Part shown: in pieces, positions 6,560 through 33,692 of the stretch
How the letters are laid out: the number at the start of each line of letters is the position of its first letter
Position numbering within the stretch: the first letter of the stretch is position 1
Assembly (NCBI GenBank): GCA_002308995.1
Contig: DBWQ01000005.1
Span: forward strand, 28,592-92,591
DNA: 64,000 bases
Reading direction: 5' to 3'
Source: Clostridiales bacterium UBA1234
GTDB taxonomy: Bacteria; Bacillota; Clostridia; TANB77; UBA1234
Translations under genes and position numbers: made by a program
The notes under the pieces: model-generated
What the model was told of the DNA's origin: nothing
Seen by the model: the letters and a program-made list of their open reading frames with translations, nothing else
Databases searched by the model: none

Positions 6560-6583
6560 GTGACAATCCTCCTACAATTCATT

Positions 6584-7735: not shown

Positions 7736-7837
7736 GAAAAATCCCTCCAACATATCGTAATCCACGACACCATTATAATGATAATGACGAATTTTGTAAA
7801 TATTTGTTTGACAATTTCCACACGAATAGGGTTTTCC

Positions 7838-8875
7838 CTAAATATGCGCAAGTATTTTTTGGAAAGCTGTTGGGAGTGCATATTTGCTTTCTAATTCTTC
7901 GGGAGATGCCCACAAAAAGCCTTCGCTTTCTTTTTCTACCAATACTTGGTAACCTTTCATGTACCAATCTATATGGGTAAAAACGTGCTTTACGTCTTTG
8001 ATGTACTTGATTTTAGTATCCTTTAAATTCCATTTTTGGATAACTTGCTTCATTTCTTTTTCTGTTAAAAAGCCTTCGACATTTGGCAATTGATACATCC
8101 CAGAAAGAAGTCCTTTATGCGTTCTTTTTTCTAATGCAATTTTTCCGTCTGGTGTTATCATGATAAACACTGTTTTTTCTTCTTGTTTGCGTTTGACCTT
8201 TTTGATACGAACTGGGATTTCTTCTGTCAAATCATGGGCATAGGCATAACAGCTTTGATGAATTGGGCAATTTTTGCAATCTGGCACACCACTTGGTATA
8301 CAGATTGTTTCTCCAAGTTCCATTAAGCCCTCATTAAAATCTCCTGACTCTTCTGGCATGATTTTGATAAGCATTTCCTCTACTTCTTTTTTGGTTTCTG
8401 GTAATAACACATCTTTTTTACTGCCGATGATACGTGAGATTACACGAAGCACATTGCCATCTACTGCTGTTACTTTTTCATTAAAACAGATGGATCCAAT
8501 TGCTCCTGCTGTATAATCACCAATTCCTGGAAGCTTTCTTCTTTCTGCAAAGTGCTCTGGCATATTTCCCTCATATTCTTCCATGATTTGAATGGCTGCC
8601 TTTTTTAAATTACGCGCACGACTATAGTATCCCAAACCTTCCCAAAGTTTTAATAAATCTTCCTCGTCAATTTGAGAAAGTGATTGGATATTAGGTAATA
8701 TGTTCATAAAGCGGGCATAATACTCTTTGACTGCTTCAATTCTAGTTTGTTGAAGCATGATTTCAGATATCCATACATGATATGGATTTTTATCTTTTCT
8801 CCATGGAAGCATACGTTTATTGTTTTGATACCATTTTAGTAATGGTTCGACAATTGGCTTTAATTCTTGTTTCAT
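7838..8875 (-). CDS. mutY: A/G-specific adenine DNA glycosylase
   Basis: LPWRKDKNPYHVWISEIMLQQTRIEAV is the HhH-GPD motif. A Cys cluster (CIPSGVPDCKNCPIHQSC) fits the Fe-S cluster, and the C-terminus is NUDIX-like. Confidence 0.85.
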   Translation of the reverse strand: MKQELKPIVEPLLKWYQNNKRMLPWRKDKNPYHVWISEIMLQQTRIEAVKEYYARFMNILPNIQSLSQIDEEDLLKLWEGLGYYSRARNLKKAAIQIMEEYEGNMPEHFAERRKLPGIGDYTAGAIGSICFNEKVTAVDGNVLRVISRIIGSKKDVLLPETKKEVEEMLIKIMPEESGDFNEGLMELGETICIPSGVPDCKNCPIHQSCYAYAHDLTEEIPVRIKKVKRKQEEKTVFIMITPDGKIALEKRTHKGLLSGMYQLPNVEGFLTEKEMKQVIQKWNLKDTKIKYIKDVKHVFTHIDWYMKGYQVLVEKESEGFLWASPEELESKYALPTAFQKILAHI

Positions 8876-8985
8876 TATTTCTCCTTCTTATGATGAGCAA
8901 TGCTCAACCGCTACGAGTAAGGGAGCGACGAGAGTGTCGCTCCCTATATTCATGATTGTTTCGCTACGAATCATTTCGTCAATAC

Positions 8986-18740: not shown

Positions 18741-19409
18741 TCAGTCCACGCAAAGGTCCACGTGAATGCCGTATCTCCGGGGGTCACCGCGCGCTTCGAG
18801 CAGGTCGTTGAGCTCGTTGATCAACCGAGCTGCATCGAAGTAGAGATCCCAGATGTGGCTCTGGACGAAGGCCTCCTTCTCGGCTTCGAGCGCGGCCGCT
18901 TCGGCAGCCATCCGCGCTTCCTCCTCGAGGGCCATGGCCTCATCCTCGAGGAGCTGCGCGTCGATGTCGAGTGCGTCCATGGCCGCCTTGGTGCGGTCCT
19001 GCAGGAGCTTCTGGCGCCGCTCAAGGCCATTGTAGAGGCGATAGTCGCGCTTGCCGGCCTTGGCCGCGCGCTTGGGCTCCGCCATCCACATTCCCGTGAA
19101 GGGGCTGTGCCAGAGCACTACGCCCTTCGGGACGGTGCCCCTCTTGAGGGTGGGAGCCTTCCAGCCAGTCTGGCACTGCGGAACGGTCACGCCCTTGGGG
19201 CCGCGGATGGCCTGGTTGGCCTTCCAGGTCTTCCGGCGCCGATCTGCGCGCTTCTTCTTGGGCATCTGCGGACGCGGGTCGAAGTCAAAGTCGTTGGAAA
19301 ACAAGCTACGCTCCGAGGGCTTTTCGTCTCCTTTCTGGGCCAGGGTTTCCTGATCCGGGGTGAGGTATCCCTCCAAGAGGGATTCGGCCATGCTCATTTT
19401 CTTCGGCAT
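18741..19409 (-). CDS. GC-rich orphan protein A (222 aa; basic low-complexity N-terminus, acidic coiled-coil C-terminus)
   Basis: AAAGGAGAATTTT-ATG RBS, GC3-rich codons and a terminator just downstream. No motif recognised. Confidence 0.6.
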   Translation of the reverse strand: MPKKMSMAESLLEGYLTPDQETLAQKGDEKPSERSLFSNDFDFDPRPQMPKKKRADRRRKTWKANQAIRGPKGVTVPQCQTGWKAPTLKRGTVPKGVVLWHSPFTGMWMAEPKRAAKAGKRDYRLYNGLERRQKLLQDRTKAAMDALDIDAQLLEDEAMALEEEARMAAEAAALEAEKEAFVQSHIWDLYFDAARLINELNDLLEARGDPRRYGIHVDLCVD

Positions 19410-19500
19410 AAAATTCTCCTTTCTATGCCCTCATAGCAAACGTAATACACCTAGATTGTGCATTCGTGCTATGTTCAATTCGGATTTTCGTACAGTTAAT

Positions 19501-19529
19501 AGTATACCAAAAATTAGTAATTTTGTCAA
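19501..19529 (-). promoter_or_regulatory. Near-consensus sigma-A promoter for orphan A
   Basis: On the minus strand: TTGACA, 17 nt, then TGG-TATACT (extended -10). Confidence 0.55.
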
Positions 19530-19586
19530 TATTATGTTTACTAGTAAGCAATATTTTTGTGAATTTATCAAATGTTATAAAAGTAA

Positions 19587-19615
19587 TTGACGCTTTATGT
19601 TAACTATGGTATAAT
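19587..19615 (+). promoter_or_regulatory. Near-consensus sigma-A promoter for orphan B
   Basis: TTGACG, 17 nt, then TGG-TATAAT. The core TTTATGTTAACTATGGTATAATA is nearly identical to the orphan C promoter. Confidence 0.55.
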
Positions 19616-19720
19616 AGTTACCGTATCCCGCACATACCCTTTTGATACTTCTATTACAATTCGGTAATAGAAAAACTTTGAGACCTTGCGCAATATGATA
19701 GCGCAGAAAGGATTTGCCTT

Positions 19721-20407
19721 ATGGAAGATAAGGTGCTCGCGTCCCAGAACCTCAGCAATGCCCCTTCCCGCCCGAACCTCTCGACGTCGTACGTTCACGA
19801 CCCCTTTCCACGTTACCAGGAACTCAAAGATAAGTACCTGAGCGGGTGGAGGCTTCTGCAACAACTGCAACAGGCCCAGACCGAAAAGGCTGTTTTCCAC
19901 GCTCTGAAGAATCTCAAGGCTGTCATCAAGCAGCTCGAGAAGCTCCAAGAGCTGGATATCCGCCCCGCCATGGAGGAGCTCCACCGGCTGGAGCTGCGGG
20001 AGGTCTCCCGCTTTGACCTGGATCAGGTGGAAAGCCTGCTTGCCCAGCTCGGCGACTTGGTCGACGAGGCCGAAATGGCGGTCTCCGAGTACCACCTGCA
20101 GAGCGTTCTCCTGCAGGCGAGCTACGACCGGCGGATTGCCAAAACCGTCGGCCAGCGCGGTCTGGAAGGCCTCTGTCTGTCCGAAGAGCTGCTGAGCATC
20201 CTCGTGAAGCTCAGCAATGAGCTCGGGGAAAGGCCTGTCTTCACCAAGGCCAAGATGGCCATTATGCTCGCTCGCATTTCCAAGATCATGGAGGTGCAGG
20301 AACTGGTGGGCCAGTATGGCCTGAATGGACTGGCGACTGCTCCCAAGGACGTCCTCGAGCTCATGGTGAACGTCGTGACCGACGTACTCCAGGACGACGA
20401 GGACTAA
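19721..20407 (+). CDS. GC-rich orphan protein B (228 aa, predicted all-helical, acidic C-terminus)
   Basis: AAAGGA RBS, GC3-rich codons (CTC/CTG/GCC/AAG/GAG) and a terminator downstream. No motif recognised. Confidence 0.6.
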   Translation: MEDKVLASQNLSNAPSRPNLSTSYVHDPFPRYQELKDKYLSGWRLLQQLQQAQTEKAVFHALKNLKAVIKQLEKLQELDIRPAMEELHRLELREVSRFDLDQVESLLAQLGDLVDEAEMAVSEYHLQSVLLQASYDRRIAKTVGQRGLEGLCLSEELLSILVKLSNELGERPVFTKAKMAIMLARISKIMEVQELVGQYGLNGLATAPKDVLELMVNVVTDVLQDDED

Positions 20408-20420
20408 GCCCACAAAAAAA

Positions 20421-20465
20421 CCCTCAAGAAGAAGGTTCTATTCCTTCCTTCTTGGGGGTTTTCCC
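20421..20465 (+). terminator. Imperfect hairpin plus T-run after orphan B
   Basis: CCCTCAAGAAGAAGG...CCTTCCTTCTTGGGGG followed by TTTT. Confidence 0.45.
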
Positions 20466-20487
20466 CTATTTTACGCTTTTGTCAAGG

Positions 20488-20516
20488 TTGCTATTTTATG
20501 TAAATTATGGTATAAT
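20488..20516 (+). promoter_or_regulatory. Sigma-A promoter for orphan C
   Basis: TTGCTA, 17 nt, then TGG-TATAAT. Confidence 0.5.
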
Positions 20517-20597
20517 AATAAGTGACTCAATATCTTTTGTACAGCGCGATACCCTTAGTACAGACTGTATTGGGATCTCAATGAAAGGAGATTTGTT

Positions 20598-21212
20598 ATG
20601 AATACAAATCTCAAGTCCGCGTTCACCACCCTCGCCACCCTGTTCACCCACCTCAAGGTCGGATGCAAGCGGCTCGTCCGTATCATCCGCCTCGGATGGC
20701 GCCGCTACCTCAGCCCGTATCACCATGGGCCAAGTCGGCGCGATCTCCAGGAAGACTACGCCGACCTTCGGCGGCTGCAGGCCATCATGGCCCTCGGCTT
20801 CCTGTGGTTCGCCGTAGGAAGCATCAAGGCGCCCAACTGGAGCGTTAAGGCCTGGGGGCTTGCTGCCGTCTCCGCGGTGTTTTTGGTAGCCATCGGCTAC
20901 CTTGGCCACCGCATCGACGCGGTAGCTGCGGATTTCCGCGCTTCTCTTCGGTCAGGAGAGCGCGTTAATCTCGATACCCCCAACCTCAACGCTTTCGCGG
21001 CGAGAACGTCCGATGCTGCACAGAGAGCTGCCACGAATCTCGCCCGCCTGCTCCGGCGCGCCGTCCTCCTCACAGTCGTCGTGGCGGTGGCTTCCGCCCT
21101 TGTTGTGGAGAATGGGTGGCTTTCGAGCTATCCCATCCTCCGCGAGATGGCGGAAACCGTTGTTCAGGCCGTGAACAGCGGACTTACCTGGGTCATGAAC
21201 TGGATTGGTTAA
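20598..21212 (+). CDS. GC-rich orphan protein C (204 aa, 3-4 TM helices)
   Basis: AAAGGAGATTTGTT-ATG RBS. Hydrophobic segments are LQAIMALGFLWFAVGSI, WGLAAVSAVFLVAIGYLG and AVLLTVVVAVASALVV. Confidence 0.55.
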   Translation: MNTNLKSAFTTLATLFTHLKVGCKRLVRIIRLGWRRYLSPYHHGPSRRDLQEDYADLRRLQAIMALGFLWFAVGSIKAPNWSVKAWGLAAVSAVFLVAIGYLGHRIDAVAADFRASLRSGERVNLDTPNLNAFAARTSDAAQRAATNLARLLRRAVLLTVVVAVASALVVENGWLSSYPILREMAETVVQAVNSGLTWVMNWIG

Positions 21213-21301: not shown

Positions 21302-21331
21302 AAAAAGAGGCACGAAACTCGTGCCTCTTTT
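21302..21331. terminator. Bidirectional terminator (host side, ends the A2M/113-aa transcription unit)
   Basis: AAAAA-GAGGCACG-aaact-CGTGCCTC-TTTT. Confidence 0.65.
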
Positions 21332-21333
21332 GG

Positions 21334-21663
21334 TTATTTTTCTTCTTGTTGTTCTATTTCTAACTCTTCATGCTTTTCTTTCCATGCTTTGCATTTTTGG
21401 TAAATGCTTTGTTTTTCGTCAAGTGTCAGTTTACTCAAGCATTGGTCTAGTGGAATTTGTCCCATGCGGATTTGATCTGCCAAATCTCCTATTTGACTTG
21501 CATTTTCCATCATTTCTTGCACATGATTACTCATAATCTCTTGGGTTTGGATGTTTTTTTGCTCTATTTTGGCATCTTTTATTAAGTTATCTCTTCTTTC
21601 ATATAACTCGGTAGCAATCATTTGCTTAATCATATAATTGGGTACATTAAAATTTTCTTCCAT
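21334..21663 (-). CDS. Small coiled-coil protein downstream of the thioester protein
   Basis: A GAGG RBS precedes the ATG at 21663 (MEENFNVPNY). The track start at 21675 lacks an RBS. No motif recognised. Confidence 0.45.
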   Translation of the reverse strand: MEENFNVPNYMIKQMIATELYERRDNLIKDAKIEQKNIQTQEIMSNHVQEMMENASQIGDLADQIRMGQIPLDQCLSKLTLDEKQSIYQKCKAWKEKHEELEIEQQEEK

Positions 21664-21678
21664 GGGAAACCTCATTTC

Positions 21679-24600
21679 TTATTCAACTACTCTTATCTCC
21701 ATTGGAGCACTATATCCTTCGATGGTTGGATTATAGTAATCATAGGCACGTACAGCAAAGCCTGTTATTTCTACTGGGTAAGAAGCTCTAAAGGATACAT
21801 TTAAATCGGCATAGCTATCAAAGTCTCTTAAGTAGATTCCTACATCATTATAATTCATTTCATATTTCTCTATCGTGCCTTGATTTAAAAGTTTCATCAA
21901 ACTATCTTCTTCTACTACAAAACCTTGTGGAATAGAGATGGTTACCATACCATTTGCAATAGCACTACCACTATTGTTTTCTACTCTAACCTTGGCATCT
22001 AAACGCTCATTCACTCTTAGATGATTTGGGCAAGTAACCGTTATTTTGATATTATTGCCACTACTCATCTTAACATCCTCATATGGAATATAGTATTCTT
22101 CCACTACCTCATAATATGCGCTAGAACGCTCAATGTCAATAGATAGTTTATTTTCTTTTGCTACATTTTCAAACATAAATTCGTACAAATCCAAAGCATT
22201 GTCTTTGATTTCCACTTTGCGTTCATCACTATTTAGTTTTACCAATACTGTTTGATTGTCTAGCTTATTCTTCTCGTTAAATTCGTTTAATGCTTTTAAG
22301 GCTAAAATGGTAGCTTGGGTGCTGTGCCATGTTCCATAAGGATCTTTCGTGCTAATTAAATAGTTCACTAATAATTGATTGGTGCTTTGATTACTTGATG
22401 TTTTCGATAACGCCATGGATGTTAAGGCAACAGTTTGAATGGTTTGATAGTTATATCTTGTACCATAGTAATCTTGGATGTTAGAAGTAATATACGCACT
22501 ATTTTCATTAATTTGAATATTGTTTATTAAAGTTTTTACGACATTACCAGCTTCTTTATCTCCTACATTGGCAAAGACATTGGCAATTAAGGCAAGCGTA
22601 TAATTATCGTTTACATCTTCTAATTTTTCTTTTAGATATTCAACAGATTTTGTAAGTCTACTATCTTTTGGATTACTCTCCGATAATGCCCAAATAATAT
22701 AAGCGTGTTGTGCTAATTTTTCTCTTGAGCTTAAGCCACCCATGTGACCACCAGTAATTTCAAACGAGCCTCCTACTTCCTGTTTTCCATATAGATAAGT
22801 ATTCATTTTTTCTAATACTTTTTCATCTACTGGATATACTTTGCTTAAATCAGTAAGTTCCATTAACCCATAGGCCGTTAATACGGTCTCGGCAGGAGAA
22901 TCTCCATAAAGTGAATACCCACCTCTTTCGCCTCTTACTTCATACGCTAATATCTTTTGGTAACCAGATGAAATATACTCTAACGCTTTTTTCTTAATGG
23001 CTTCATCTGCTGTTTTATTATCTTCCATATATTTTAATGCTAAAATGTTTGGATACAAGCTTGAAGATACTTGTTCAAAACATCCTGTTGGCATTCTAAA
23101 GATGTTTTCCATACCTTCGATGGCTTGTGCCATTAAGCTAGCATAAATCTTAACTTTAACCTTGGCAGTATTTTCTATCATATTATCTAAAAGCAAGATA
23201 TCTTCTGAAATATCTCTGTCGAGTGATCCGTTTGAAACCACTTTTTCTACCTTGTAGCCCTTTGGCATAATGGTTAATTCTTTTTCTACAATATCAGTAT
23301 AAGTATTTCCCTTTGCTTCCACACGTAGCTTAAAGGTTCCACTAGTATTAATTGTTAATGGAACGTAGGTCATTTTTAATCCTTGTGGTTCAACAGCAAG
23401 GGTAAGATTATGAGAACCATTTAACGTAAAGAAGCTATCTTCTTTCACTGTCAACGTGACATTTTGCATTTCATCGGTATAGTTATACACCGTTACAGGG
23501 ATACTTACTTTATCTGATGTGACTAAATTCTTTGGAAGTTCAAAGTCCACAAAGAATTCCTTAAATACTTTCACATCGTCTTTGGTGCCAAAACCGATTC
23601 TACCATCTTTGGTATTTCCTACCGTTTGAATGGTCCATGTAGTAATATTATCGGCAAGTCTTAAATCTAAACTTGCTTTTCCATTGGAGGCAATTAGTTC
23701 TGGAATAAAGCACATACTCTCTAAGAAAATGTTTCTCACCTGTTCTTCTGATGCTTCTTGTGTATCATTTGGCGCTGTTTCCACTACCACATCACGCTCT
23801 ACAACTGGAGCTGGTGCTGTATTTTCTTTCTTACTCGTTGAAAAGTCTAAGAAATTAGAAAAACCACCTCTTGAACTACTGCCAAACGCTTTAGACGCAC
23901 CTGATCTATCTGATTGAATCCCGATGCTATCACTATAATTGAAATCTGAAATTGCTTGGCCACCGCCAGTAATCGTATCTTGTGAAAAACTAAATAATAG
24001 TCCCAAAAACAATCCCATTAAGGTCATGCCAATAATAACTCCAATCACAACACTTGCAATAGATTCTTCTGTTTCTTCACCTGCTACCTCTTCGTTTTGT
24101 TCTTCAGTTTGATTCATTCTTCGAACATTTAAGAAATAGTTAATGACATATAAGGCAATGATTGCAATTGGCAAAGTAATAGAAGTATGACTCTCAACTC
24201 TCCAATAACGATCATATGGATATCGGCTCATATAGTTTATATAACTATATGAATGCCCTATAAAGAATAGTTTATCCATAATGAATCCAATAGCGAGAGA
24301 CGGAATACATGCAATCAGCATCCACCCAATATAGATTAGTTCTTTTTTACCAAAGTCAGCGACAATACCCTTTTTCTTTCTCCTACTATTCACTATTTTT
24401 GCCACAATGACAACCACTAAAACAAGTGCTGCCAATAGCGTAAGTATCAACATTCCTTCTAAATAAAGCTCCTCTATCATCCAATAGCAAGCAAACCATA
24501 ATAAAAACATTATCATAATACTTGTTGTGGTTCTTTTGGTATATGGATATAGTTTTGAAAGACCAACAATATAAACAATGGCCCCCACAATCATTGTGAT

Positions 24601-26736
24601 AAGTAGTAACCATTCTTCCTCATAGAAACGAGTATAATAATCTAATAAACTATAAAGAATGACATAAGTGACAATCACAAAAACCAAGTAGGTTGTAATT
24701 TGTCTAAAGAGATTGCGCACTGCTTTAAAACGAACCAAGGAATAAATAAGTGCCAAAATAGCAAACATGCAATAGAAGAAAACAGAAAAACCTTTGGCAC
24801 GTTCTTCATTATCATACCCCGTATAAGTGTTTTTATCTAATTGCATTGACCTTACGCCTTGCTTTAATAATAAACCAACCATTGCTTCTTCACTGATATC
24901 ATCTACAATGCAAGAATACAGTGTTGCTGCATCTAATTCATCATCAAATGAAATATCTTGTAAAGCAAGTTTAATGTTATCAATGGTTAAATCATTTCCT
25001 GCTAAATTTAATACCGCATTATCTAGCATGCTCACTAAAAGAGCAGCTTCTACATTCGTGCCATTTTCATTTGTTGCATCAAATGCAATATGAATGTTCT
25101 CTCCCGGCTTATATTCTTGTTGATTGGTATCAATGCTTATTTGTAACTCTTTTTCCGGTTTAATAAAGATGGTTCTATGATAGGAATTATCACTATTTAT
25201 AGAAGAGTTTTTACGATAAGAATAATTGTAATAGTCGTAATCATAGTATGATGAAGAATTACTATTTTGACTATGAACATAAATATCAATTAATCCGTAT
25301 GTATCACCTAAATTGACACTGGTTTCATCACTGTCTGTTGATAGCACTTTGATTAGCTTATCATTTTTAAAGAAATAGATTTCTCTGGTATTATCTACTA
25401 ATGATAAAGTTCTTAAATTGATTTCATCTCCTTGAGTATACTTTGGTTTATCTGTAGAAAGCAAAAGAGTTCTTTTTACAACATTAAGGGTGATGTTTTT
25501 ATTCACATGATTGCCATCCATGTCTTCCGCTAAGATACGAAAAGTTTTTTGCGAAGCATTTGCATTATCAATATCAATAGAGAACTTACCAATACCGTTG
25601 TTATCTGTTGCAACTTGTCTTGTGTAATTACCTGAAGTCACTGTTAAATATGTTTTAAGACCACTTCCATCTGCATTTTTAGTAAATACATAAATATCAT
25701 TTCTTGTTCCCATCGCCAGTGTTCCAAACTCTGGAAGAAGTTCTATTTCAAACAAATCCGTTCCCACAGAAAAACGTTTATCTGCTTCTGCATAATAGTT
25801 TGAAGCATCAACCGCTTCCACATGAATCTGATAAGTACCCGGATTGGTTACCTGAAAAGAATACTCTGACTTTCCATCACTACCCGTTACTGTTTCTCTT
25901 CTTTTTTCGCCATTTATATAGACATTTAATTTGGTATCTGGTGCCACTTCTCCAAAAAAGTAATTGGCAGCAAAAGTGATCTTTGGCATTTCACCTACCA
26001 AATATTTTTCTTTATCGGTTGTGATAGTTACCTCATATTTTGGCACTACATAAGGGTTTACTATAAACTCTTTGATTGTTTCTGAAGCATTGGTGCTAAC
26101 TTTTAATTTGTAAAAACCACTATTCACTTCGCTAGCAAGATGAAAAGAGCCACTCATAATACCATAATCAGAAGTTTTCACATTTTCGTTATAAACCCTA
26201 TTATCGTTGCCATCATAGATGGAAACATTGACATCTTTGGCAAGAGGAATGTCTGATTCTTTTTGAGTCAGTAATGCTCTAAAATTCACCGTATCTCCTG
26301 GTTTATAAATTCCTTTATCAAAAGAAATGGTTACATTTTCACTATGCCCTTTTGATAAGTAAATATCTTTTTGAATAACATCCTTTCCCTCTTTACTTGA
26401 AACATGAAACTCTAAAGTATAGTTTCCCGCTTCTACGTCAGGAATTCTTATGAGAAACGTATTTCCTTCTTTTGAAGTTTCAACGCCTTTTACTTTTTTA
26501 TTTTTGGAATCCAATAGTTTTACTTCTGTCTTTGCCTCAAGTTCAGTGCCATTTGTTTTATAGGCCATCACATTTAAATAGACATCGCTATTGGTATAAA
26601 GATTTTTTGCCATGCTAATGACTACTTTTTGTTCCCCAGATACAATCCATTTATATGTATTTATCAAGGCTAAAGCAGTGCATAAAATGATAAGTCCTAA
26701 GATGACTTTTAAAACCACTTTTCTTTTCTTCGACAT
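21679..26736 (-). CDS. Thioester-containing alpha-2-macroglobulin family protein with an internal 8-TM block
   Basis: 1685 aa with an N-terminal TM anchor. MG modules include FDKGIYKPGDTVNFRALL...DYGIMSGSFHLASEVNSGFYKLKV. The A2M-domain signature is VRNIFLESMCFIPELIASNGKASLDLRLADNITTWTIQTVG. The thioester motif is MPTGCFEQ. Confidence 0.8.
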   Translation of the reverse strand: MSKKRKVVLKVILGLIILCTALALINTYKWIVSGEQKVVISMAKNLYTNSDVYLNVMAYKTNGTELEAKTEVKLLDSKNKKVKGVETSKEGNTFLIRIPDVEAGNYTLEFHVSSKEGKDVIQKDIYLSKGHSENVTISFDKGIYKPGDTVNFRALLTQKESDIPLAKDVNVSIYDGNDNRVYNENVKTSDYGIMSGSFHLASEVNSGFYKLKVSTNASETIKEFIVNPYVVPKYEVTITTDKEKYLVGEMPKITFAANYFFGEVAPDTKLNVYINGEKRRETVTGSDGKSEYSFQVTNPGTYQIHVEAVDASNYYAEADKRFSVGTDLFEIELLPEFGTLAMGTRNDIYVFTKNADGSGLKTYLTVTSGNYTRQVATDNNGIGKFSIDIDNANASQKTFRILAEDMDGNHVNKNITLNVVKRTLLLSTDKPKYTQGDEINLRTLSLVDNTREIYFFKNDKLIKVLSTDSDETSVNLGDTYGLIDIYVHSQNSNSSSYYDYDYYNYSYRKNSSINSDNSYHRTIFIKPEKELQISIDTNQQEYKPGENIHIAFDATNENGTNVEAALLVSMLDNAVLNLAGNDLTIDNIKLALQDISFDDELDAATLYSCIVDDISEEAMVGLLLKQGVRSMQLDKNTYTGYDNEERAKGFSVFFYCMFAILALIYSLVRFKAVRNLFRQITTYLVFVIVTYVILYSLLDYYTRFYEEEWLLLITMIVGAIVYIVGLSKLYPYTKRTTTSIMIMFLLWFACYWMIEELYLEGMLILTLLAALVLVVVIVAKIVNSRRKKKGIVADFGKKELIYIGWMLIACIPSLAIGFIMDKLFFIGHSYSYINYMSRYPYDRYWRVESHTSITLPIAIIALYVINYFLNVRRMNQTEEQNEEVAGEETEESIASVVIGVIIGMTLMGLFLGLLFSFSQDTITGGGQAISDFNYSDSIGIQSDRSGASKAFGSSSRGGFSNFLDFSTSKKENTAPAPVVERDVVVETAPNDTQEASEEQVRNIFLESMCFIPELIASNGKASLDLRLADNITTWTIQTVGNTKDGRIGFGTKDDVKVFKEFFVDFELPKNLVTSDKVSIPVTVYNYTDEMQNVTLTVKEDSFFTLNGSHNLTLAVEPQGLKMTYVPLTINTSGTFKLRVEAKGNTYTDIVEKELTIMPKGYKVEKVVSNGSLDRDISEDILLLDNMIENTAKVKVKIYASLMAQAIEGMENIFRMPTGCFEQVSSSLYPNILALKYMEDNKTADEAIKKKALEYISSGYQKILAYEVRGERGGYSLYGDSPAETVLTAYGLMELTDLSKVYPVDEKVLEKMNTYLYGKQEVGGSFEITGGHMGGLSSREKLAQHAYIIWALSESNPKDSRLTKSVEYLKEKLEDVNDNYTLALIANVFANVGDKEAGNVVKTLINNIQINENSAYITSNIQDYYGTRYNYQTIQTVALTSMALSKTSSNQSTNQLLVNYLISTKDPYGTWHSTQATILALKALNEFNEKNKLDNQTVLVKLNSDERKVEIKDNALDLYEFMFENVAKENKLSIDIERSSAYYEVVEEYYIPYEDVKMSSGNNIKITVTCPNHLRVNERLDAKVRVENNSGSAIANGMVTISIPQGFVVEEDSLMKLLNQGTIEKYEMNYNDVGIYLRDFDSYADLNVSFRASYPVEITGFAVRAYDYYNPTIEGYSAPMEIRVVE
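23071..23082 (-). other. Thioester codons C-F-E-Q
   Basis: The reverse complement reads ...ATG CCA ACA GGA TGT TTT GAA CAA GTA..., i.e. M P T G C F E Q V. Confidence 0.8.
23985..24790 (-). other. Eight predicted TM helices inserted between the MG-domain half and the bait/A2M/TED half
   Basis: There are eight hydrophobic segments of 17-25 aa. Alternate loops are basic (RFKAVRNLFRQ, SKLYPYTKRTTT, NSRRKKKGIVADFGKKE, NVRRMNQ), consistent with the positive-inside rule and with both flanks being outside the cell. Confidence 0.6.
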
Positions 26737-26767: not shown

Positions 26768-26796
26768 ATTATATCATATTCGACAAAAAACAACAA
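26768..26796 (-). promoter_or_regulatory. Putative sigma-A promoter of the thioester-protein gene
   Basis: On the minus strand: TTGTTG, 17 nt, then TATAAT, followed by a GAAGGGGGA RBS. Confidence 0.4.
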
Positions 26797-26809
26797 TCTT
26801 AAGCAATAC

Positions 26810-26846
26810 AAAAAGACTTGGTAATTTAATTACCAAGTCTTTTTTG
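26810..26846. terminator. Bidirectional terminator after the SLH adhesin gene
   Basis: AAAAGACTTGGTAA-tttaa-TTACCAAGTCTTTT, flanked by A and T runs. Confidence 0.7.
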
Positions 26847-26855
26847 TTTTTTTAT

Positions 26856-29800
26856 TTAAGCAGCTTCTTGCTCGTCATCTTGTTTAGTATTTTCCGTTTC
26901 TTGTGGAAGAACTGCTTCTACTTGTTTAGTAGATTCTGTTTCTTCAACTGATGATTTTTCTTCAATCGTTTTTGGTTCTTCTACTGGAATTTCTTCCTCA
27001 GATGCCTTTGGCTCTTCTACTGGAACTTCTTCCTCAGATGCCTTTGGCTCTTCTACTGGAACTTCTTCCTCAGATGCCTTTGGTTCTTCTACTGGAACTT
27101 CTTCCTCAGATGCCTTTGGCTCTTCTACTGAAACTTCTTTCTCAGATGCCTTTGGCTCTTCTACTGAAATTTCTTCCTCTTCTTTCTTGTCATCCTCAGA
27201 AGGTTTGATTACTTCTTCCTCTTCTTTCTTGTCATCCTCGGAAGGTTTGATTACTTCTTCCTCTTCTTTCTTGTCATCCTCAGAAGGTTTGATTACTTCT
27301 TCCTCTTCTTTCTTGTCATCCTCTGAAGGTTTGGTTACCTCTTCCTCTTCTTTCTTGTCATCCTCTGAAGGTTTGGTTACCTCCTCGGCTTCTTTTTCAT
27401 CTTTGTCTTTCTTTTCTTCAACCTTTTCTTCTGACTCTACAACTTCCTCAGCTTCAACTTTTTCTCCAGATTCTATCATTTCAATCTCATCGCTATCTTC
27501 TGAAATGATTTCCTCTTTTTCATCAGGCTCAGCTAACGCATTTTCTATTGCAAGTAATTCTTCTTCTGATAAATCTCCTGTATTGTCTTTGCCTACGTAT
27601 ACAACGGTCCATGTGAACTCATCACTATCCATCGTCTTTGTCATAAGAGCTTTTCTTAGACCTCTTGTTCCTGCTGATGTTCCTAATTCCATGGTAAATG
27701 CACTACATCCAGGATAATTAGAAATATCCCATGAGATATTATTCTCTTCATCAATAGCAATATGGTTTTCCGCTAATTGTGAGGAATTACTTACAGTGAT
27801 TGTAACAGTATCGCCTGATACATCTTTATAAGTTAAAGTAATTGGATAAATATTTTCTGTATCGGTTAAGGTTGTTCCAATATATCCATGATCCGATTGC
27901 ATTGAATTAATTTCACTAGCAATCTCTTCAAATGCTTTCACTAAACCTTCCTCATTTGTTGCTGGGAATATCCTTAATTGATTGTTGTTAACAATCTTAT
28001 TCATTTCTCCAGTTGCAAAGGAATCTCCTAGTCCAACTGCAAATGATTCGATTTCAAACTTTCTAAAATCTCTAAGTGTCGAATCACTAATTTCTTTTTT
28101 AGCATCTGGTTCTCCATCCGACAAAAATACTAAAATATTTGTCGCATTATCAAGCATTCTATCTCCTTTGTCTCCGCTAAATACTGCTGTTGCATTGGCT
28201 AATGCCTGATTGATATCTGTTCCACCAGCCACTTCAATTGCATTAATAGCGGTCTCTACTGCCGAGTAGGATGGATTTGTTTTGGTATCACTGATAGTAA
28301 CGTCAGATGCAAATTGAATAAAGGTTATCGTAATATTTTCTGATGCACCTTTGTTCTCAAGAATCGATTTTGCAAATGCTTTTGCAGCTGTTTTCAAAGC
28401 ACTTAATCTTGAACTATAAAGTAGTCCACATTGTTTGCAGTATGAGGTGCCTCCTAGACTTCCATGTTCGCTACAAGAATAGGTCCATCCTGTTAGCATT
28501 CCTCCCCAACTTCTTGTTACATGGGCTTTACCGCACTCTGTGCAGTAGATATCATATTTATCAGAATCATATTTGCCTGTGTCCCAATCCCATCCTGATG
28601 CATCACAATCTAAGTCACCACTTCCATGTTTTAAGCAAAATGTCATACTTCCTGATGTATCAAGTAATAAGACAATGTTCTTATTTGATTCTTGTTTTAA
28701 AATAACAGAATCTTCGATAGCAACACTACTTGTTCCAGTTGCTCCTTCGGTTGCTTCTACGGTAAGTGTTGCACCTGCAGGAACCATATTAGATACTGTT
28801 AAATCAAATGTTAGTGTATCATCTACCGAATTAATTGTATAGGTGATGGTACCACTATCAGAATCGTATACAGCTCCTTCTGGCAAGTTGGCAATCGTAG
28901 ATGCTACATGGTCAATTGAATCACCACTTCTGGTTGCACCACTAATACTCAAACAAACTGTCATTGGGTATTCTCCTGATGTTTCACCACCTATTTCTTC
29001 AAATGAAACCGTATACTTAATGGTATCTCCTGGCTCAGCCTTGGTTCCATCAGCTTTTGGATAATCTGAATTAATGGTAGCGCTTAAAGTTGCTTTTTCT
29101 TTTCTATTGTAACTTGCGACATACGTTACATCACCTGTTACAACTTCATTTGCTATAGTAACGCTTGCACCATTCTTTGTCCAACCAGCAAACTCATACT
29201 TGTATGTGCTATCTGATGGTCTGGTTGGTTCACCACTATCATAGCTTGGAGTTGTTCCATGTTTTACATTTTCATCTACTTCTAATTGTGTTCCATTGTA
29301 ATTTTGCCAAGTAACAGTGTAGCTATTCAAAGTATAGTATAGTTTTAATACTAAACTACCATCTCCTGCAATCTCACCACTAACAATGTTATTTGCATTG
29401 TTTGGATCGAATGTGAAGCCTTCAAATTCTTTTTGCTCTGCTTCTACTACTGCTCCGGTTGTTCCCGTTAAGTTTTCGGTTTGCTTAATTTCAAAAGTAC
29501 CATTTAGTTTTTCAGTGTAGTGTTTTACTTGGTATGGTGTATCGTCCTTTGCACTAAATGAACCTGTAATGGTTACATTCTCTGCTGGCATTGGGAAGGT
29601 ACCTGTTCTATCCCAACCACTAAACTCATATCCTGCTGCTGTTGCTGGATCTGCCACAGTTACTGTTGCACCGTATGCATATTCTCCGCTTGCAGGTAAT
29701 GCTGTTGCATCTGCTGGGATAACTTCGCCTGTGTATTCATACTCTACTGTGTAACTATTTCTTACATAGTATAGTTTTAATACTAGGCTTCCGTCTCCGG

Positions 29801-32800
29801 CAATCTCACCACTAACTACATTGTTTGTATTTGTTTCATCGAAGGTAAAGCCTTCAAATTCTTTTTGCTCTGCTTCTACTACTGCTCCGGTTGTTCCTGT
29901 TTCATTTACTGTTGCATCGTCATCTTTTTCAAATGCTGTCTTTTCTACATTTTGTTTGTAGTATTCTACTGTGTATGCGGTATCGTCCTTTGCACTAAAT
30001 GAACCTGTAATGGTTACATTCTCTGCTGGCATTGGGAAGTTTTCCGTTCTGCTCCAGCCACTAAAGGTATATCCTGCAGCTTCGGCTGGACCTGCTACGA
30101 TAACAGTTTCATCAAATAAATACTCCCCACTTGCAGGTAATGCTGTTGCATCTTTCGGAATCACTTCGCCTGTGTATTCATACTCTACTGTGTAACTATT
30201 TCTTGTATAGTATACGTTAATCACATTATCGCTATCTGCTAAAACTAGTTCTTCTGGATCAACACTATCATAGGTAAAGCCAGGTGCTTCCTCTAGTTTT
30301 TCGCTTTCGCCACTAATCATGTCACCAACTTTGACGTCAGTTACTGTTTTTGCATCAGCAACTGTCACTGTTGGTTTATCTTTTTCTAAATAATTAACGG
30401 TATAGCTTGTAGACTTTCTTGTATAGGAGATTGTTGCTTCTAATACATCTTTATTAAGTGTTTCTACATCTTTCGTGATGGTGTACCAAGAAGCTTCTTC
30501 GCCACTATATACATAGTCGGCAACTGCTACTGTTTTATCCACGCTATCGATGATAACCTTATTATCTTCAACGGTCACAGCTTCATCATCAAATACATGA
30601 TGAATAACTGCTTCTAGTGGTAGTACAGTAACTGTTACCTCTTTTTCTACTACAACTACATCATGAATGGTGATGGTAACTGTTGCTGTTACTTCGCCAG
30701 AGGTAATGCCACGAACTGTTGCTTCATTTTCATCGCTGCCCTTCACAATTTCTGCAATTGTTTCTTCTTGATCTAATGTCCAAACAACTGTCTTCTTTTC
30801 TGCATCTGGTCTTAAAGTAAGTGTCATTTCCTTTTCTTCACCAATGTATAGGGTAACACCATTTGCTAGAGCATCAATTGTTTCATCACCCGATGGAGTA
30901 ATCGTTGGATCACCAGAAGGGTCACCTGATGGATCAACTGTTGGGTCTCCCGATGGGTCTACAGGAACTTCAATCTCAATTTCTCTATCTAATACAATAA
31001 CATCGACTACTTTGGTAATCTCAAAACCTTGCACGGTTGTGGCAGTAATTGCAACTTGAACAGGTTCTTTTGTTGCTGCCAAAGCTGTTACTGTGCCATC
31101 TTCTGCTAAGGTAATATTTTCATGGTTGGTTCCCTCAACGATTTCGTAAGCATAAGTTGCTTGTAAATCTTCTGGAATGATGCTTACATTAAATCTTCTC
31201 TTTTCACCAACCCACATTACTAGGCCATTTGCTTCAATGTCTTCGTTTGTAATATCCCCCGAGTTATCTCCAGATGGAACTACTGGTGTATCACCAGATG
31301 GGTCTCCTGAAGGATCTACTGGTGTGTCACCTGATGGATCTCCTGATGGTTCAACCGTATTTGGATCTGGATCTGCTTCTACTTTGATGGTTGCCCAAAT
31401 AGCATCTAATCGAATATTTTCTGATAACTTCGAAATGGTTTCGCCACCGGCATAAATCGTCGTGCCATTTTCTCTCTTCCAACCAGCAAATTCAAAACCT
31501 TCTATTGCTAAATCAGCAGGCTTTTCATGAACTACAACATCTAAACCAGTTACGACGGTTTGTTTAAGATCTGTCAATTCATCACCACTACTATAGTAGG
31601 TAACTGAAAAATGATCTTCTTCATCATCTGGGATGTTGTTTTCATTTTGATCTTCACCAAATTTAACAGTAATCTCATGGTCTGCGATAACGTCCTCAAA
31701 TTTATATCCGTCAACTTTATATTGATCTCTTTCTTCTGTTGAAAGAGCTGTACCATCTACTGTAATTTCTTTTACGGTATATTTGTCATCTGGAGTAAAT
31801 GTATATGTGTAATCCTTTTCATAGTCTGCATTGATAGTTCCCTCTGGAGCAATACTTCCGTGATTATCTCCACTTTCATCAGTTACTACCGAAGACGTAA
31901 TATGAAGTTGAATCACTTTAACATCAATTTCTCTTGATACTTCTACACCATTAATCGAAACTGTCACTTTTGCTTTCGTTTCGCCTTCTGCTAAACCTTT
32001 GATAGTGGCATTTTCTGTGTTCTCACCTTTCACAAAGTCTGCATAGGTTTGAGTTTCATCTATAAACTCCCATGCAACAACTTTGTTTTTAGCATCTGGT
32101 GTTAATGTAAGAGATAATTCTTTTTCTTGTCCTACATATAGAGTAACACCATTTGCTAATACATCAATTGTTTCTTCTCCTGATGTTGGCGTTTCGCCTG
32201 ATGGATCACCTGTTGGTGTTGGCGTTGGTGTTGGTGTGTCACCTGATGGTGTTGGTACATCCCCAGATGGATCTACTGGTGTTTCGATAGTAATTTCTCT
32301 ATCTAATACAATAACGTCTACTACTTTGGTAATTTCAAAACCTTGTGCCGTCGTTGCAGTAATAGAAACTTGGACTGGTTCTTTCGTCTCAGCCAAAGCT
32401 GTTACTGTACCATCTTCTTCTAATATAATATTTTCATGGTTGGTTCCTTCAATAACGCTATAAGTATAGGTTGCTTGTAAATCTTCTGGAATGATGCTTA
32501 CATGAAATTTTCTCTTTTCGCCAACCCACATGACTAAGCCATTTGCTTCAATGTCTTCGTTGGTAATATCACCAGGGTTATCTCCTGATGGAGTCACTGG
32601 TGTTTCGCCTGATGGATCACCTGATGGGTCTCCACTTTCTACTGTGTTAGGGTCTGGATCAGCTTCTACTTTGATGGTTGCCCAAATTGCATCCATACGA
32701 ATATGTGATTTTAATTTACTGATAGTCTCGCCACCACCATAAATTGTATTGGTGTCTTGTCTTCTCCAACCAGCAAATTCATATCCTTCTTGCATAAAGT

Positions 32801-33581
32801 CAACTGGTTTTTCATGAACAGTAACATCCTTTCCCGATGCTACTCTTTGTTTTAAATCAGTTAACTCTTCGCCACTATTATAGTAGGTAACATTGTAGTA
32901 GATGGTTGTACCACCACCGCCACCTCCTGTTGGGCGTTCTATCTCAATATTTTCTTCTAATTTATTTAATAGTTCTACAGTTTCAGCACGTGTTACATTC
33001 TTAAGAATTTTAAGAGTGCCGTCTTTATAACCATTAATAAAGTTGTGAACAGAATAACTGTGAATTGCTTGTCTAGCCCATGCTTGTACTTCTTTATTAT
33101 CAGAGTATTGTGCTAAACCATCTACATGATCTTCTGGATACTCTTCTTTATCGATGTGAATGATTCTCGCCAAAATGACTGTTGCTTCTTGACGTCTAAT
33201 TGGATCTTGTGGTTTGAAAGTACCATCATCATAACCCGTGATATAGCCACGTCTTACTGCTTCTTCTACATAGCCTGTATACCAAGCATTTTCAGGGACA
33301 TCCTTAAATGTTGAACCTCCCTTCGGTGTAGAATCATAGCCAAAGAAGTTATTGACTATCTTAACGTACTCAGCTCTTGTGATAGTTTGGTCAGCTTTGA
33401 AAGTGCCGTCCTTGTAACCATCCACATAGCCTCTGTCTAAAAAGTCCATAATCTTTTCATAGCACCAATGAGTAGGTTTTAAATCGCTAAAACCAGGTGT
33501 TGCTGCTTGTGAGATCAATGAAACAGTAATTAATGATAATACAAGTATTAAACTTGCCATCTTAAAAACTTTAGACTTCAT
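26856..33581 (-). CDS. Giant SLH-anchored multidomain adhesin (3x SLH, InlB-B/Flg_new-like repeats, Big_2, MucBP-like repeats, vWA, acidic tail)
   Basis: GGAGGAA lies 7 nt before the ATG at 33581 (MKSKVFKMASLILVLSLITVSLISQA signal peptide). Three SLH repeats are present (FSDLKPTHWCYEKI..., FKDVPENAWYTGYVEEAV..., YSDNKEVQAWARQAI...). The vWA MIDAS motif is VLLLDTSGSM. There is no LPXTG. The track start at 33674 is an upstream extension. Confidence 0.8.
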   Translation of the reverse strand: MKSKVFKMASLILVLSLITVSLISQAATPGFSDLKPTHWCYEKIMDFLDRGYVDGYKDGTFKADQTITRAEYVKIVNNFFGYDSTPKGGSTFKDVPENAWYTGYVEEAVRRGYITGYDDGTFKPQDPIRRQEATVILARIIHIDKEEYPEDHVDGLAQYSDNKEVQAWARQAIHSYSVHNFINGYKDGTLKILKNVTRAETVELLNKLEENIEIERPTGGGGGGTTIYYNVTYYNSGEELTDLKQRVASGKDVTVHEKPVDFMQEGYEFAGWRRQDTNTIYGGGETISKLKSHIRMDAIWATIKVEADPDPNTVESGDPSGDPSGETPVTPSGDNPGDITNEDIEANGLVMWVGEKRKFHVSIIPEDLQATYTYSVIEGTNHENIILEEDGTVTALAETKEPVQVSITATTAQGFEITKVVDVIVLDREITIETPVDPSGDVPTPSGDTPTPTPTPTGDPSGETPTSGEETIDVLANGVTLYVGQEKELSLTLTPDAKNKVVAWEFIDETQTYADFVKGENTENATIKGLAEGETKAKVTVSINGVEVSREIDVKVIQLHITSSVVTDESGDNHGSIAPEGTINADYEKDYTYTFTPDDKYTVKEITVDGTALSTEERDQYKVDGYKFEDVIADHEITVKFGEDQNENNIPDDEEDHFSVTYYSSGDELTDLKQTVVTGLDVVVHEKPADLAIEGFEFAGWKRENGTTIYAGGETISKLSENIRLDAIWATIKVEADPDPNTVEPSGDPSGDTPVDPSGDPSGDTPVVPSGDNSGDITNEDIEANGLVMWVGEKRRFNVSIIPEDLQATYAYEIVEGTNHENITLAEDGTVTALAATKEPVQVAITATTVQGFEITKVVDVIVLDREIEIEVPVDPSGDPTVDPSGDPSGDPTITPSGDETIDALANGVTLYIGEEKEMTLTLRPDAEKKTVVWTLDQEETIAEIVKGSDENEATVRGITSGEVTATVTITIHDVVVVEKEVTVTVLPLEAVIHHVFDDEAVTVEDNKVIIDSVDKTVAVADYVYSGEEASWYTITKDVETLNKDVLEATISYTRKSTSYTVNYLEKDKPTVTVADAKTVTDVKVGDMISGESEKLEEAPGFTYDSVDPEELVLADSDNVINVYYTRNSYTVEYEYTGEVIPKDATALPASGEYLFDETVIVAGPAEAAGYTFSGWSRTENFPMPAENVTITGSFSAKDDTAYTVEYYKQNVEKTAFEKDDDATVNETGTTGAVVEAEQKEFEGFTFDETNTNNVVSGEIAGDGSLVLKLYYVRNSYTVEYEYTGEVIPADATALPASGEYAYGATVTVADPATAAGYEFSGWDRTGTFPMPAENVTITGSFSAKDDTPYQVKHYTEKLNGTFEIKQTENLTGTTGAVVEAEQKEFEGFTFDPNNANNIVSGEIAGDGSLVLKLYYTLNSYTVTWQNYNGTQLEVDENVKHGTTPSYDSGEPTRPSDSTYKYEFAGWTKNGASVTIANEVVTGDVTYVASYNRKEKATLSATINSDYPKADGTKAEPGDTIKYTVSFEEIGGETSGEYPMTVCLSISGATRSGDSIDHVASTIANLPEGAVYDSDSGTITYTINSVDDTLTFDLTVSNMVPAGATLTVEATEGATGTSSVAIEDSVILKQESNKNIVLLLDTSGSMTFCLKHGSGDLDCDASGWDWDTGKYDSDKYDIYCTECGKAHVTRSWGGMLTGWTYSCSEHGSLGGTSYCKQCGLLYSSRLSALKTAAKAFAKSILENKGASENITITFIQFASDVTISDTKTNPSYSAVETAINAIEVAGGTDINQALANATAVFSGDKGDRMLDNATNILVFLSDGEPDAKKEISDSTLRDFRKFEIESFAVGLGDSFATGEMNKIVNNNQLRIFPATNEEGLVKAFEEIASEINSMQSDHGYIGTTLTDTENIYPITLTYKDVSGDTVTITVSNSSQLAENHIAIDEENNISWDISNYPGCSAFTMELGTSAGTRGLRKALMTKTMDSDEFTWTVVYVGKDNTGDLSEEELLAIENALAEPDEKEEIISEDSDEIEMIESGEKVEAEEVVESEEKVEEKKDKDEKEAEEVTKPSEDDKKEEEEVTKPSEDDKKEEEEVIKPSEDDKKEEEEVIKPSEDDKKEEEEVIKPSEDDKKEEEEISVEEPKASEKEVSVEEPKASEEEVPVEEPKASEEEVPVEEPKASEEEVPVEEPKASEEEIPVEEPKTIEEKSSVEETESTKQVEAVLPQETENTKQDDEQEAA
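26968..27395 (-). repeat. In-frame coding tandem repeats (about 6 x 36 bp, then about 5 x 45 bp) encoding the acidic C-terminal tail
   Basis: The protein repeats are EEPKASEEEVPV x6 and EEV(I/T)KPSEDDKKEEE x5. The near-identical DNA units are directly visible. Confidence 0.85.
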
Positions 33582-33692
33582 TTTACAGTTCCTCCTTTTT
33601 GATTTTAACCTTATTAGGTTTTGTAAAAAATTTTTAACAAATAAGACCAGAGAGTATTTCTCTGATCTTATCAAAACAAAAAATATGAAAAA

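Follow-up and report, generated by a model that had tools for sequence, protein, structure and literature searches.

A bacterial thioester macroglobulin with a predicted eight-helix membrane block at the position of the bait region

Animal innate immunity rests in good part on thioester proteins, among them alpha-2-macroglobulin (A2M), complement C3, the thioester-containing proteins (TEPs) and CD109. In bacteria, to our knowledge, relatives have been reported only from Gram-negatives, as periplasmic lipoproteins or as soluble proteins. What kind of protein is it, then, and what might it do, when a gene of the Clostridia appears to combine the A2M/TEP layout with a polytopic membrane domain placed where such proteins are activated? 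The gene in question (Table 1) lies on the reverse strand of a 64,000-nucleotide stretch of Clostridiales bacterium UBA1234 (assembly GCA_002308995.1, contig DBWQ01000005.1, positions 28,592 to 92,591; hereafter the window, from whose first letter all coordinates are counted unless another contig is named) and encodes a protein of 1685 amino acids (aa). An inspection of the letters that preceded this work, referred to here as the original prediction, had described a thioester A2M with MG, A2M and thioester domains and with one N-terminal and eight internal transmembrane (TM) helices, and both parts of that description hold up below. The best reading of the combined evidence is a member of the A2M/TEP superfamily exposed on the outside of the cytoplasmic membrane in Clostridia associated with the gut.

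Domain architecture and membrane topology

The protein clearly belongs to the A2M/TEP superfamily: it has an array of macroglobulin (MG) domains, an A2M domain and a thioester domain (TED) bearing a CxEQ thioester. Pfam assigns MG2 to residues 137-220 (E = 3.6e-20), MG4 to 349-405, the A2M domain (PF00207) to 1008-1096 (E = 1.1e-22), TED_complement (PF07678) to 1197-1486 (E = 8.8e-38) and A2M_recep to 1598-1671 (E = 4.2e-07), while A2M_BRD is matched over the last third of its profile only, at residues 527-578, upstream of the TM block. All of these are eukaryote-type A2M/TEP models, and the bMG models are not among the matches. In the AlphaFold2 (AF2) model, residues 36-570 are all-beta. The thioester motif is intact, as had been claimed, although the interval first given for it (23071-23082) covers the CFEQ core only and the full PTGCFEQ extends over 23071-23091. 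Invariant columns of the family include R1001, F1004-S1007, C1009, F1010 and D1029-T1032, and the motif DNITTW is invariant as well. The C-terminus (...APMEIRVVE) is the end of the MG8/receptor-binding domain, with neither a hydrophobic tail nor a glycosylphosphatidylinositol (GPI) anchor signal, and in the N-terminus MSKKRKVVLKVILGLIILCTALALI, position -1 of the sole Cys is Leu, which does not make a lipobox. NCBIfam holds no model for the protein, NCBIfam and PADLOC together matched nothing in the A2M protein or in the products of its neighbour genes, and the only name in any source is 'hypothetical protein [Clostridia bacterium]'.

A 19-residue Kyte-Doolittle scan finds eight internal hydrophobic segments (residues 650-668, 680-698, 709-727, 736-754, 761-779, 801-826, 853-871 and 896-914), so that the block spans 23995-24789, within a few bases of the 23985-24790 originally proposed, and the column-averaged hydropathy of 101 full-length homologues resolves eight separate peaks. 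Modelled on its own with AF2 from an alignment of 31 sequences (A3) built from excised sub-sequences, the block forms eight long helices (pLDDT, the per-residue confidence score, 79; pTM, the global score, 0.70), and the AF2 model of residues 1-1196 places the same eight helices between beta-sandwich arrays. The N-terminal helix, which in AF2 comprises residues 2-32 and continues directly into MG1, reads as a signal-anchor, although ALA at 21-23 could make it a cleavable signal peptide. Across the family, the segment preceding this helix carries a net charge of +2.8, represented here by the basic tail MSKKRK; loops 1-2, 3-4, 5-6 and 7-8 average +3.8, +3.2, +4.3 and +1.5, and loops 2-3, 4-5 and 6-7 on the opposite side average -2.1, -1.6 and -0.8. 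Because these charges alternate as the positive-inside rule expects, the predicted topology has the N-terminus inside, the MG half outside, eight crossings and the C-terminal half outside, which is the arrangement with alternate basic loops and two external halves that the original prediction had put forward. Little of the chain would face the cytoplasm, namely a tail of 6 residues and loops of 8-24 aa, with no cytoplasmic domain. An aromatic-rich insertion, GHSYSYINYMSRYPYDRYWRVESHTS, occupies residues 824-849 in the external loop 6-7, where most homologues have a few residues.

The position of the block within the fold can be read from alignments to complement proteins. The sequence VRNIFLESMCF...DNITTWTIQ aligns with IRSYFPESWLW...DSLTTWEIQ of C5, and the stretch from residue 1023 aligns also with the alpha' chain of C3; the matching segment of C5 and C3 is alpha'NT/MG6-alpha, directly after the anaphylatoxin domain (ANA). 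The match to human A2M starts at residue 724 of the deposited chain, which we take to lie just past the bait. By these alignments, the TM block and the variable linker that follows it fill exactly the slot within MG6 that is taken by the anaphylatoxin domain in C3 and C5 and by the bait-region domain (BRD) in A2M. Both ends of an insertion into MG6 must rejoin the same domain, so the helices have to be even in number, as the eight are here.

The two linkers that flank the block are of different kinds. Residues 579-649, which connect MG6-beta to helix 1 almost without slack, are gapless in the family alignment with a consensus identity of 0.74, and AF2 models them as helices 573-591, 600-612 and 616-625 and a strand at 633-639. 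Residues 915-1000, after helix 8, have pLDDT values of 25-35 and are the least conserved region of the protein (consensus identity 0.24, 32% gaps); across the family, this linker measures 62-112 aa and is rich in S, N, D, T, E and G. Between homologues that share 80% or more identity in the TED, the mean pairwise identity is 22% for the linker and 46% for the TM block, as against 84% for the TED and likewise for the A2M domain. Disorder, exposure and hypervariability are what would be expected of a bait, and residues 915-1000 are regarded here as a putative, bait-like region on the strength of the model and the family alignment. The original prediction had pointed to a protease-accessible-looking stretch after the last helix, at the bait position, and the low pLDDT, the hypervariability and the C5/C3 alignment agree with it.

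The family, its relatives and known thioester proteins

A search of 5.8 billion proteins returned the identical protein (P0001) and 313 further matches. Among the 120 matches listed, nearly all are 1630-1700 aa long and align end to end at about 50% identity; all 120, which stem from independent assemblies, have a hydrophobic block at the same relative position, in which a crude threshold counts 6-8 segments each, and all 120 retain P[TS]GCFEQ. The identical gene is present in an independent Logan assembly (locus L001), and the same architecture recurs on dozens of metagenome contigs, whose samples are of human gut, rumen-type and termite-type origin; a scan of genome contigs with exact peptide patterns, taken from the single protein, found one locus only. 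The novelty that had been claimed for the architecture stands in one respect, as the published full text searched holds no description of a membrane-threaded or Clostridial A2M, and falls in another, as it is not rare but found in at least 120 clusters at 90% identity. Contigs of relatives carry Spo0A, YabP/YqfD and sortase genes, and one is labelled 'uncultured Eubacteriales bacterium'; the sporulation genes, the sortase and the label point to monoderm Clostridia as the type of organism.

Outside this family, the TM block has no recognisable kin. Its Pfam matches at E <= 10 are noise, and the best of them, DUF2062 (0.042), was rejected as below the cut-off. Foldseek finds no such fold in the PDB (best E = 2.2, TM-scores <= 0.2), and when a profile of it was run against 1.84 billion representatives, no relatives beyond this family emerged: the search returned 41 proteins, of which those inspected were full-length family members or truncated pieces, and its short matches begin or stop within family motifs. 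As an activation-site module, the block is without a precedent found. Its conservation is uneven, with scores of 0.58 for the cytoplasmic helix halves versus 0.44 for the external halves and of 0.42 for the cytoplasmic loops versus 0.18 for the external ones. Conserved residues on the cytoplasmic side, polar ones among them, include His679, N682, Y722 (invariant), T736, Y863, N870 and G903, and at position 679 the present protein has Gln in place of the near-invariant His of the family.

A scan of metagenomes yielded further eight-helix members and also variants with other inserts at the same site, of 2, 4 or 6 helices and always of an even number. A two-helix clade (L021, L025, L026, L027, L030, L033 and L050; 1447-1515 aa, 37-42% identity) carries a hairpin with a basic connecting loop, L034 has four helices at the bait site, and L056, at 23% identity, has six, counted by reading the sequence. 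The last helix of the two- and four-helix forms terminates in a lipobox-like motif (LTSC, LASC, FSAC, FAAC or IMGC), followed by a Pro/Ala-rich linker and then by VRRLFLET, so that the helix and its motif look like a putative internal lipoprotein signal peptide. Processing at this site could yield two chains, the C-terminal one lipidated, in analogy to the beta and alpha chains of C3. Such processing was also considered for the eight-helix family and was rejected, the motif occurring in 1 of 134 sequences, as by chance.

Two further departures from the eight-helix plan concern the ends and the slot of the protein. The A2M of L056 (6416..11605 of its contig) begins with a zf-HC2 anti-sigma domain (2.2e-10), and its start codon overlaps the stop codon of an ECF-type (extracytoplasmic function) sigma factor gene (5787..6419), so that the two are translationally coupled; the arrangement suggests that A2M ectodomains are used as sensors. 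Immediately upstream, the opposite strand encodes another sigma/anti-sigma pair. In L072 (open reading frame (ORF) 5591..10168), residues 674-780 form a TonB-receptor Plug domain (PF07715, 1.1e-14), and L070, L073 and L082 are built likewise: all are more distant, TM-less thioester A2Ms whose Plug takes the slot of the TM block, after the MG half and before the A2M domain. A neighbour-joining tree of C-terminal halves, drawn without support values, joins the two-, four- and six-helix relatives with the eight-helix family in one clade and nests the Plug forms outermost, followed by L056, L034 and, finally, the two- and eight-helix forms as sister clades. The motif KFxKFR after helix 1, common to the four- and eight-helix forms, supports common descent of the inserts. 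Since relatives with 2, 4 and 6 helices exist, eight are an elaboration and not a requirement.

How does the protein compare with known thioester proteins? Its best matches in the PDB by phmmer are CD109 (7e-47) and human A2M (2e-44), followed by A2ML1, TEP1 and C3, while no ECAM or Salmonella A2M chain is among the 58 PDB matches at E <= 1e-3. Foldseek likewise ranks CD109 best (2.7e-29), finds C3 and A2ML1, and matches ECAM (5a42) at 1.8e-24; for the TED, the best PDB matches are CD109 (9e-24), A2ML1 and TEP1. HMMER aligns His1331 (in GGHMGG) with a His of CD109 (VIHSELQGG), A2ML1 and TEP1, which we take to be the catalytic His that enables transfer to hydroxyl groups in C3-type thioesters. 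Across an alignment gap of 3-4 residues, His1331 would thus be the equivalent of the catalytic His.

With CD109, the protein shares a monomeric-type MG/CUB/TED/MG8 layout, an intact thioester, the aligned His and tethering to a membrane. However, CD109 is eukaryotic, has a C-terminal GPI anchor and an ordinary soluble bait, whereas the present protein is tethered by an N-terminal helix and by eight helices at the bait site. The domain order of human A2M, A2ML1 and insect TEP1 is the same: MG6-beta and MG6-alpha flank a bait or protease-sensitive region, and a CxEQ thioester and a receptor-binding-type C-terminal domain are present, but they are soluble, secreted proteins that lack membrane segments, and neither the tetramerisation of A2M nor the partnership of TEP1 with LRIM has a counterpart here. 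C3 and C5 share the insertion point, which holds their anaphylatoxin domain, and the alignable FLESMCF/FPESWLW and DNITTW motifs, and they too carry a bulky module ahead of a segment that must be freed for activation. In contrast to them, the present protein has neither ANA nor C345C, and there is no evidence of activation by a convertase; while the module of C3 leaves as C3a, an integral membrane bundle cannot leave.

Two classes of bacterial A2M have been described, both of them periplasmic proteins of Gram-negatives (PMC5764988; see also PMC13069473). Type I (ECAM/YfhM) has a thioester, is encoded together with PBP1c (pbpC) and is a periplasmic lipoprotein of diderms, a membrane-associated protease trap for which a role as guard of the cell envelope has been proposed; type II (MagD, YfaS) lacks the thioester, belongs to a six-gene mag operon and is associated with the inner membrane (PMC5764988). 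Like type I proteins (ECAM, Sa-A2M), the present protein is bacterial, thioester-bearing and membrane-associated, and the folds are similar, but it lacks a lipobox, a neighbouring penicillin-binding protein (PBP) gene and matches to bMG models, and it has the internal TM block. With type II, it shares the MG scaffold, with a bait region that is putative in the present protein, and the association with the inner membrane, yet it has a thioester, TM segments of its own and no operon. It belongs to neither class, and the view that it differs from the known bacterial A2Ms is upheld by the missing phmmer match to ECAM, the missing lipobox and a neighbourhood of neither the pbpC nor the mag type.

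Protease trap, sensor or surface tag

The function to which we give somewhat better than even chances is that of a membrane-integrated protease trap, with the helix bundle as tether and as stopper for the bait. MG1 to MG6-beta would lie outside, the chain would cross the membrane eight times and re-emerge outside, and downstream of the linker the alpha'NT/MG6-alpha, MG7, CUB, TED and MG8 modules would again be external. Standing in for ANA or BRD, the bundle would fasten the bait by its N-terminal end at the surface of the membrane. A foreign protease arriving at this surface would cut the exposed linker and free the alpha'NT end, whereupon the MG ring and the TED would rearrange as in A2M, C3 or CD109, and the unmasked thioester, probably with the assistance of the His, would bond covalently to the protease or to the nearest nucleophile. 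The product would be retained at the cell surface, as the MG ring would still be held by the N-terminal helix (helix 0) and by helix 1. A trap of this kind suits a monoderm, since such a cell has no periplasm in which a soluble trap could be held. The block itself looks like an anchor rather than an enzyme or a transporter, because it diverges so much faster than the TED and has no Pfam match, no PDB fold and no outside relatives. That it evolves fast and that the sister clade manages with two helices are reasons to argue that anchoring may be its core role. Of the two roles that the original prediction had offered for the block, coupling to a membrane or cytoplasmic event and simple stapling, these two points favour the staple, while the conserved cytoplasmic face and the anti-sigma fusion of L056 lend some weight to signalling. 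Kinship in sequence and fold with TEPs that trap or opsonise also speaks for a trap.

Several points weigh against this proposal. Eight helices far exceed the needs of a tether. Bait cleavage, thioester formation and trapping are carried over by homology and would have to proceed here as they do in the animal proteins; once the bait is cut, non-covalent contacts through MG6 would be all that holds the C-terminal fragment, and its retention at the membrane is assumed. The topology is a prediction from hydropathy, the positive-inside rule and AF2 secondary structure. Moreover, 26 of the 32 positions of the TM block with a consensus of at least 75% lie on the cytoplasmic side, and this polarity hints at a function beyond anchoring. 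What it could stand for is a transmembrane protease sensor, in which cleavage or firing of the thioester outside would alter the packing of the bundle, and the change would be relayed to the cytoplasm through a partner, a channel-like opening or regulated proteolysis. The structured and highly conserved linker ahead of helix 1, which would couple the MG ring tightly to the bundle, and the six helices in excess of those of the two-helix sister clade would both make sense for such a device, and the zf-HC2 fusion of L056, overlapping an ECF-type sigma gene, points to a signalling ectodomain in at least one lineage. However, the short tail and loops leave no cytoplasmic domain to receive a signal, the neighbour genes are not conserved, the block evolves much faster than the ectodomains and is unlike any known channel, transporter or sensor, and two helices suffice in the sister clade; a sensor is considered improbable, at about one third of the weight given to the trap. 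The broader proposal that TM-inserted thioester macroglobulins make up a prokaryotic class of transmembrane protease sensors, of which L056 would be the explicit version and the eight-helix family a version working through its conserved cytoplasmic face, is equally speculative.

A role closer to that of complement is less probable again. The protein might be a covalent tagger or adhesin, its thioester aimed at hydroxyls or amines of host mucus, of another cell or of its own wall or S-layer. His1331, aligned with the catalytic His that gives C3, C4B, TEP1 and CD109 their hydroxyl reactivity, fits such a task, and the nearest relatives by sequence are the membrane-bound CD109 and the opsonin TEP1; the gene adjoins that of a 2272-aa surface protein with SLH, VWA and Flg_new domains, and homologues adjoin TasA/SipW-like fibre genes and genes for Flg_new proteins. 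These neighbourhoods are not conserved, though, a hypervariable bait suits an arms race with proteases better than adhesion, and the TED sits on the fragment that would lose its covalent link to the membrane upon cleavage, which is a poor arrangement for anchoring to a target, while the equivalence of the His comes from a gapped sequence alignment. As for the architecture being an artefact, with two genes fused by a frameshift or an assembly error or with a hydrophobic stretch that does not span the membrane, its chances are negligible. A fusion is refuted by the listed homologues, all 120 of which are uninterrupted and built alike, by the identical protein assembled independently in the Logan run and by the dozens of metagenome contigs, and the eight hydrophobic peaks and the alternation of charge are family-wide; nothing was found in favour of an artefact beyond the unusual architecture itself. 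The concern that sequencing had joined two genes, raised with the original prediction, can thus be dropped, and the membrane-integrated trap is retained as the preferred function.

Genomic setting and wider meaning

The transcription unit consists of the A2M gene and a 113-aa ORF only (Table 1). The original prediction had suggested looking at the conservation of this downstream gene, which turns out to have none: tblastn finds it only in L001, with the same sequence, among 85 loci, and it has no match in Pfam, NCBIfam or PADLOC. The hairpin between the convergent units is likely a bidirectional terminator that ends the A2M transcript, and Rfam and tRNA scans of the window returned nothing. 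The neighbours of the A2M gene are the SLH/VWA protein gene, the 113-aa ORF and a set of high-GC ORFs, and neither pbpC nor a mag-type operon is among them. There is no conserved partner gene, as four loci have unrelated neighbours, including YabP/YqfD in L003, toxin-antitoxin, Agr and SipW/TasA-like genes in L004, and CutA1 and phospholipid genes in L005, and in L003-L005 no PBP gene adjoins the A2M gene. The A2M gene works alone.

Table 1. Coordinates of the A2M gene, its parts and other features of the window
Feature	Coordinates	Strand	Evidence
A2M/TEP-family ORF, 1685 aa	21679..26736	-	Uninterrupted ORF, Pfam domains
N-terminal hydrophobic helix, residues 7-25	26662..26718	-	Kyte-Doolittle score 2.87
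MG1 to MG6-beta beta-sandwich array, residues 36-578	25003..26631	-	Pfam MG2, MG4, A2M_BRD; AF2; Foldseek
Pre-membrane helical linker, LNK/BRD-like, residues 579-649	24790..25002	-	Family alignment, AF2
Predicted eight-helix TM block, residues 650-914	23995..24789	-	Hydropathy, loop charge, AF2
Aromatic-rich insertion in loop 6-7, residues 824-849	24190..24267	-	
Disordered Ser/Gly/Asp/Thr-rich linker, putative bait, residues 915-1000 (86 aa)	23737..23994	-	pLDDT, family variability
alpha'NT-like motif (RNIFLESMCF), MG6-alpha and A2M domain with DNITTWT, residues 1001-1096	23449..23736	-	Pfam, C5/C3 alignment
Thioester domain, residues 1197-1486	22279..23148	-	Pfam TED_complement
Thioester motif PTGCFEQ, residues 1216-1222 (Cys1219, Gln1222)	23071..23091	-	Translation
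His1331 in GGHMGG	22744..22746	-	HMMER alignment, translation
C-terminal receptor-binding/MG8-type domain, residues 1598-1671	21724..21945	-	Pfam A2M_recep
113-aa acidic helical ORF, 3 nt after the A2M stop, same transcription unit	21334..21675	-	
13-bp GC-rich hairpin between convergent units	21303..21331		
Upstream control region as a whole	26773..26844	-	Consensus scans only
Promoter-like site	26802 to 26773	-	Consensus scan
Terminator-like hairpin, 16 bp, closing the preceding SLH/VWA gene	26810-26844	-	Consensus scan
2272-aa SLH/VWA surface protein	26856..33674	-	
Second A2M-family protein, 1656 aa	8986..13956	-	
TelA/XpaC-like cluster	13986..18787	-	
Three high-GC ORFs	18672..21212	+	
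Large serine recombinase, 568 aa	55881..57587	-	

The 2272-aa surface protein encoded directly upstream has three SLH domains, Flg_new (Listeria-Bacteroides) repeats, VWA and a C-terminus of acidic tandem repeats (KPSEDDKKEEEEV..., then VEEPKASEEE...). Near the A2M genes of L003 (1763..6388) and L004 (13171..16377 and 19627..20499) lie SipW-like signal peptidases, TasA/camelysin-like small secreted proteins and a Flg_new protein; this cluster stands beside the A2M gene in L003 and L004 only and is not present in the window or in L005. A second A2M-family protein in the window, with MG2, A2M_BRD, A2M and Big_5 domains, has an N-terminal TM anchor only, lacks both CxEQ and internal helices, carries an ordinary Gly/Ser/Asp-rich stretch ahead of its A2M domain and has no sequence match in the PDB. 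It is a thioester-less, 'type II-like' paralogue, so that this genome has two kinds of A2M, as does that of E. coli. Between the two A2M genes, a cluster encoding TelA, a 418-aa unknown protein, an XpaC-like protein (Halogen_Hydrol) and a 616-aa protein with SBP_bac_11 and VWA domains looks like one of the tellurite-resistance or stress type.

Convergent with the A2M unit are three adjoining ORFs of 254, 228 and 204 aa, whose GC content is 60-66%, against about 33% for the genome, and whose spacers are AT-rich. They have no match in Pfam or PADLOC and no DNA match in plasmid and phage collections, and since the same arrangement is present in the independent Logan assembly (L001), they do not make the window a chimera. 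At the far end of the window, the serine recombinase (Resolvase, Recombinase and Zn_ribbon_recom domains) is a possible sign of an integrated mobile element.

All of the eight-helix proteins and their variants are annotated as 'hypothetical' at present, yet together they amount to a eukaryote-like thioester family that carries its polytopic membrane domain at the site of activation and that many uncultured Clostridia of the gut possess; related contigs bear the label human gut or stem from other metagenome collections. Judging by the series of two, four, six and eight helices, the internal lipoboxes, the Plug domains and the anti-sigma fusion, modules may generally be swapped at the bait slot of bacterial A2Ms. 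If the proposed reading is true, the family shows how a cell that has no periplasm keeps a suicide protease trap at its membrane, it offers a natural experiment on the mechanical role of the ANA/bait module in C3 and A2M, and it would bear on the old question of horizontal transfer of A2M between metazoans and bacteria.

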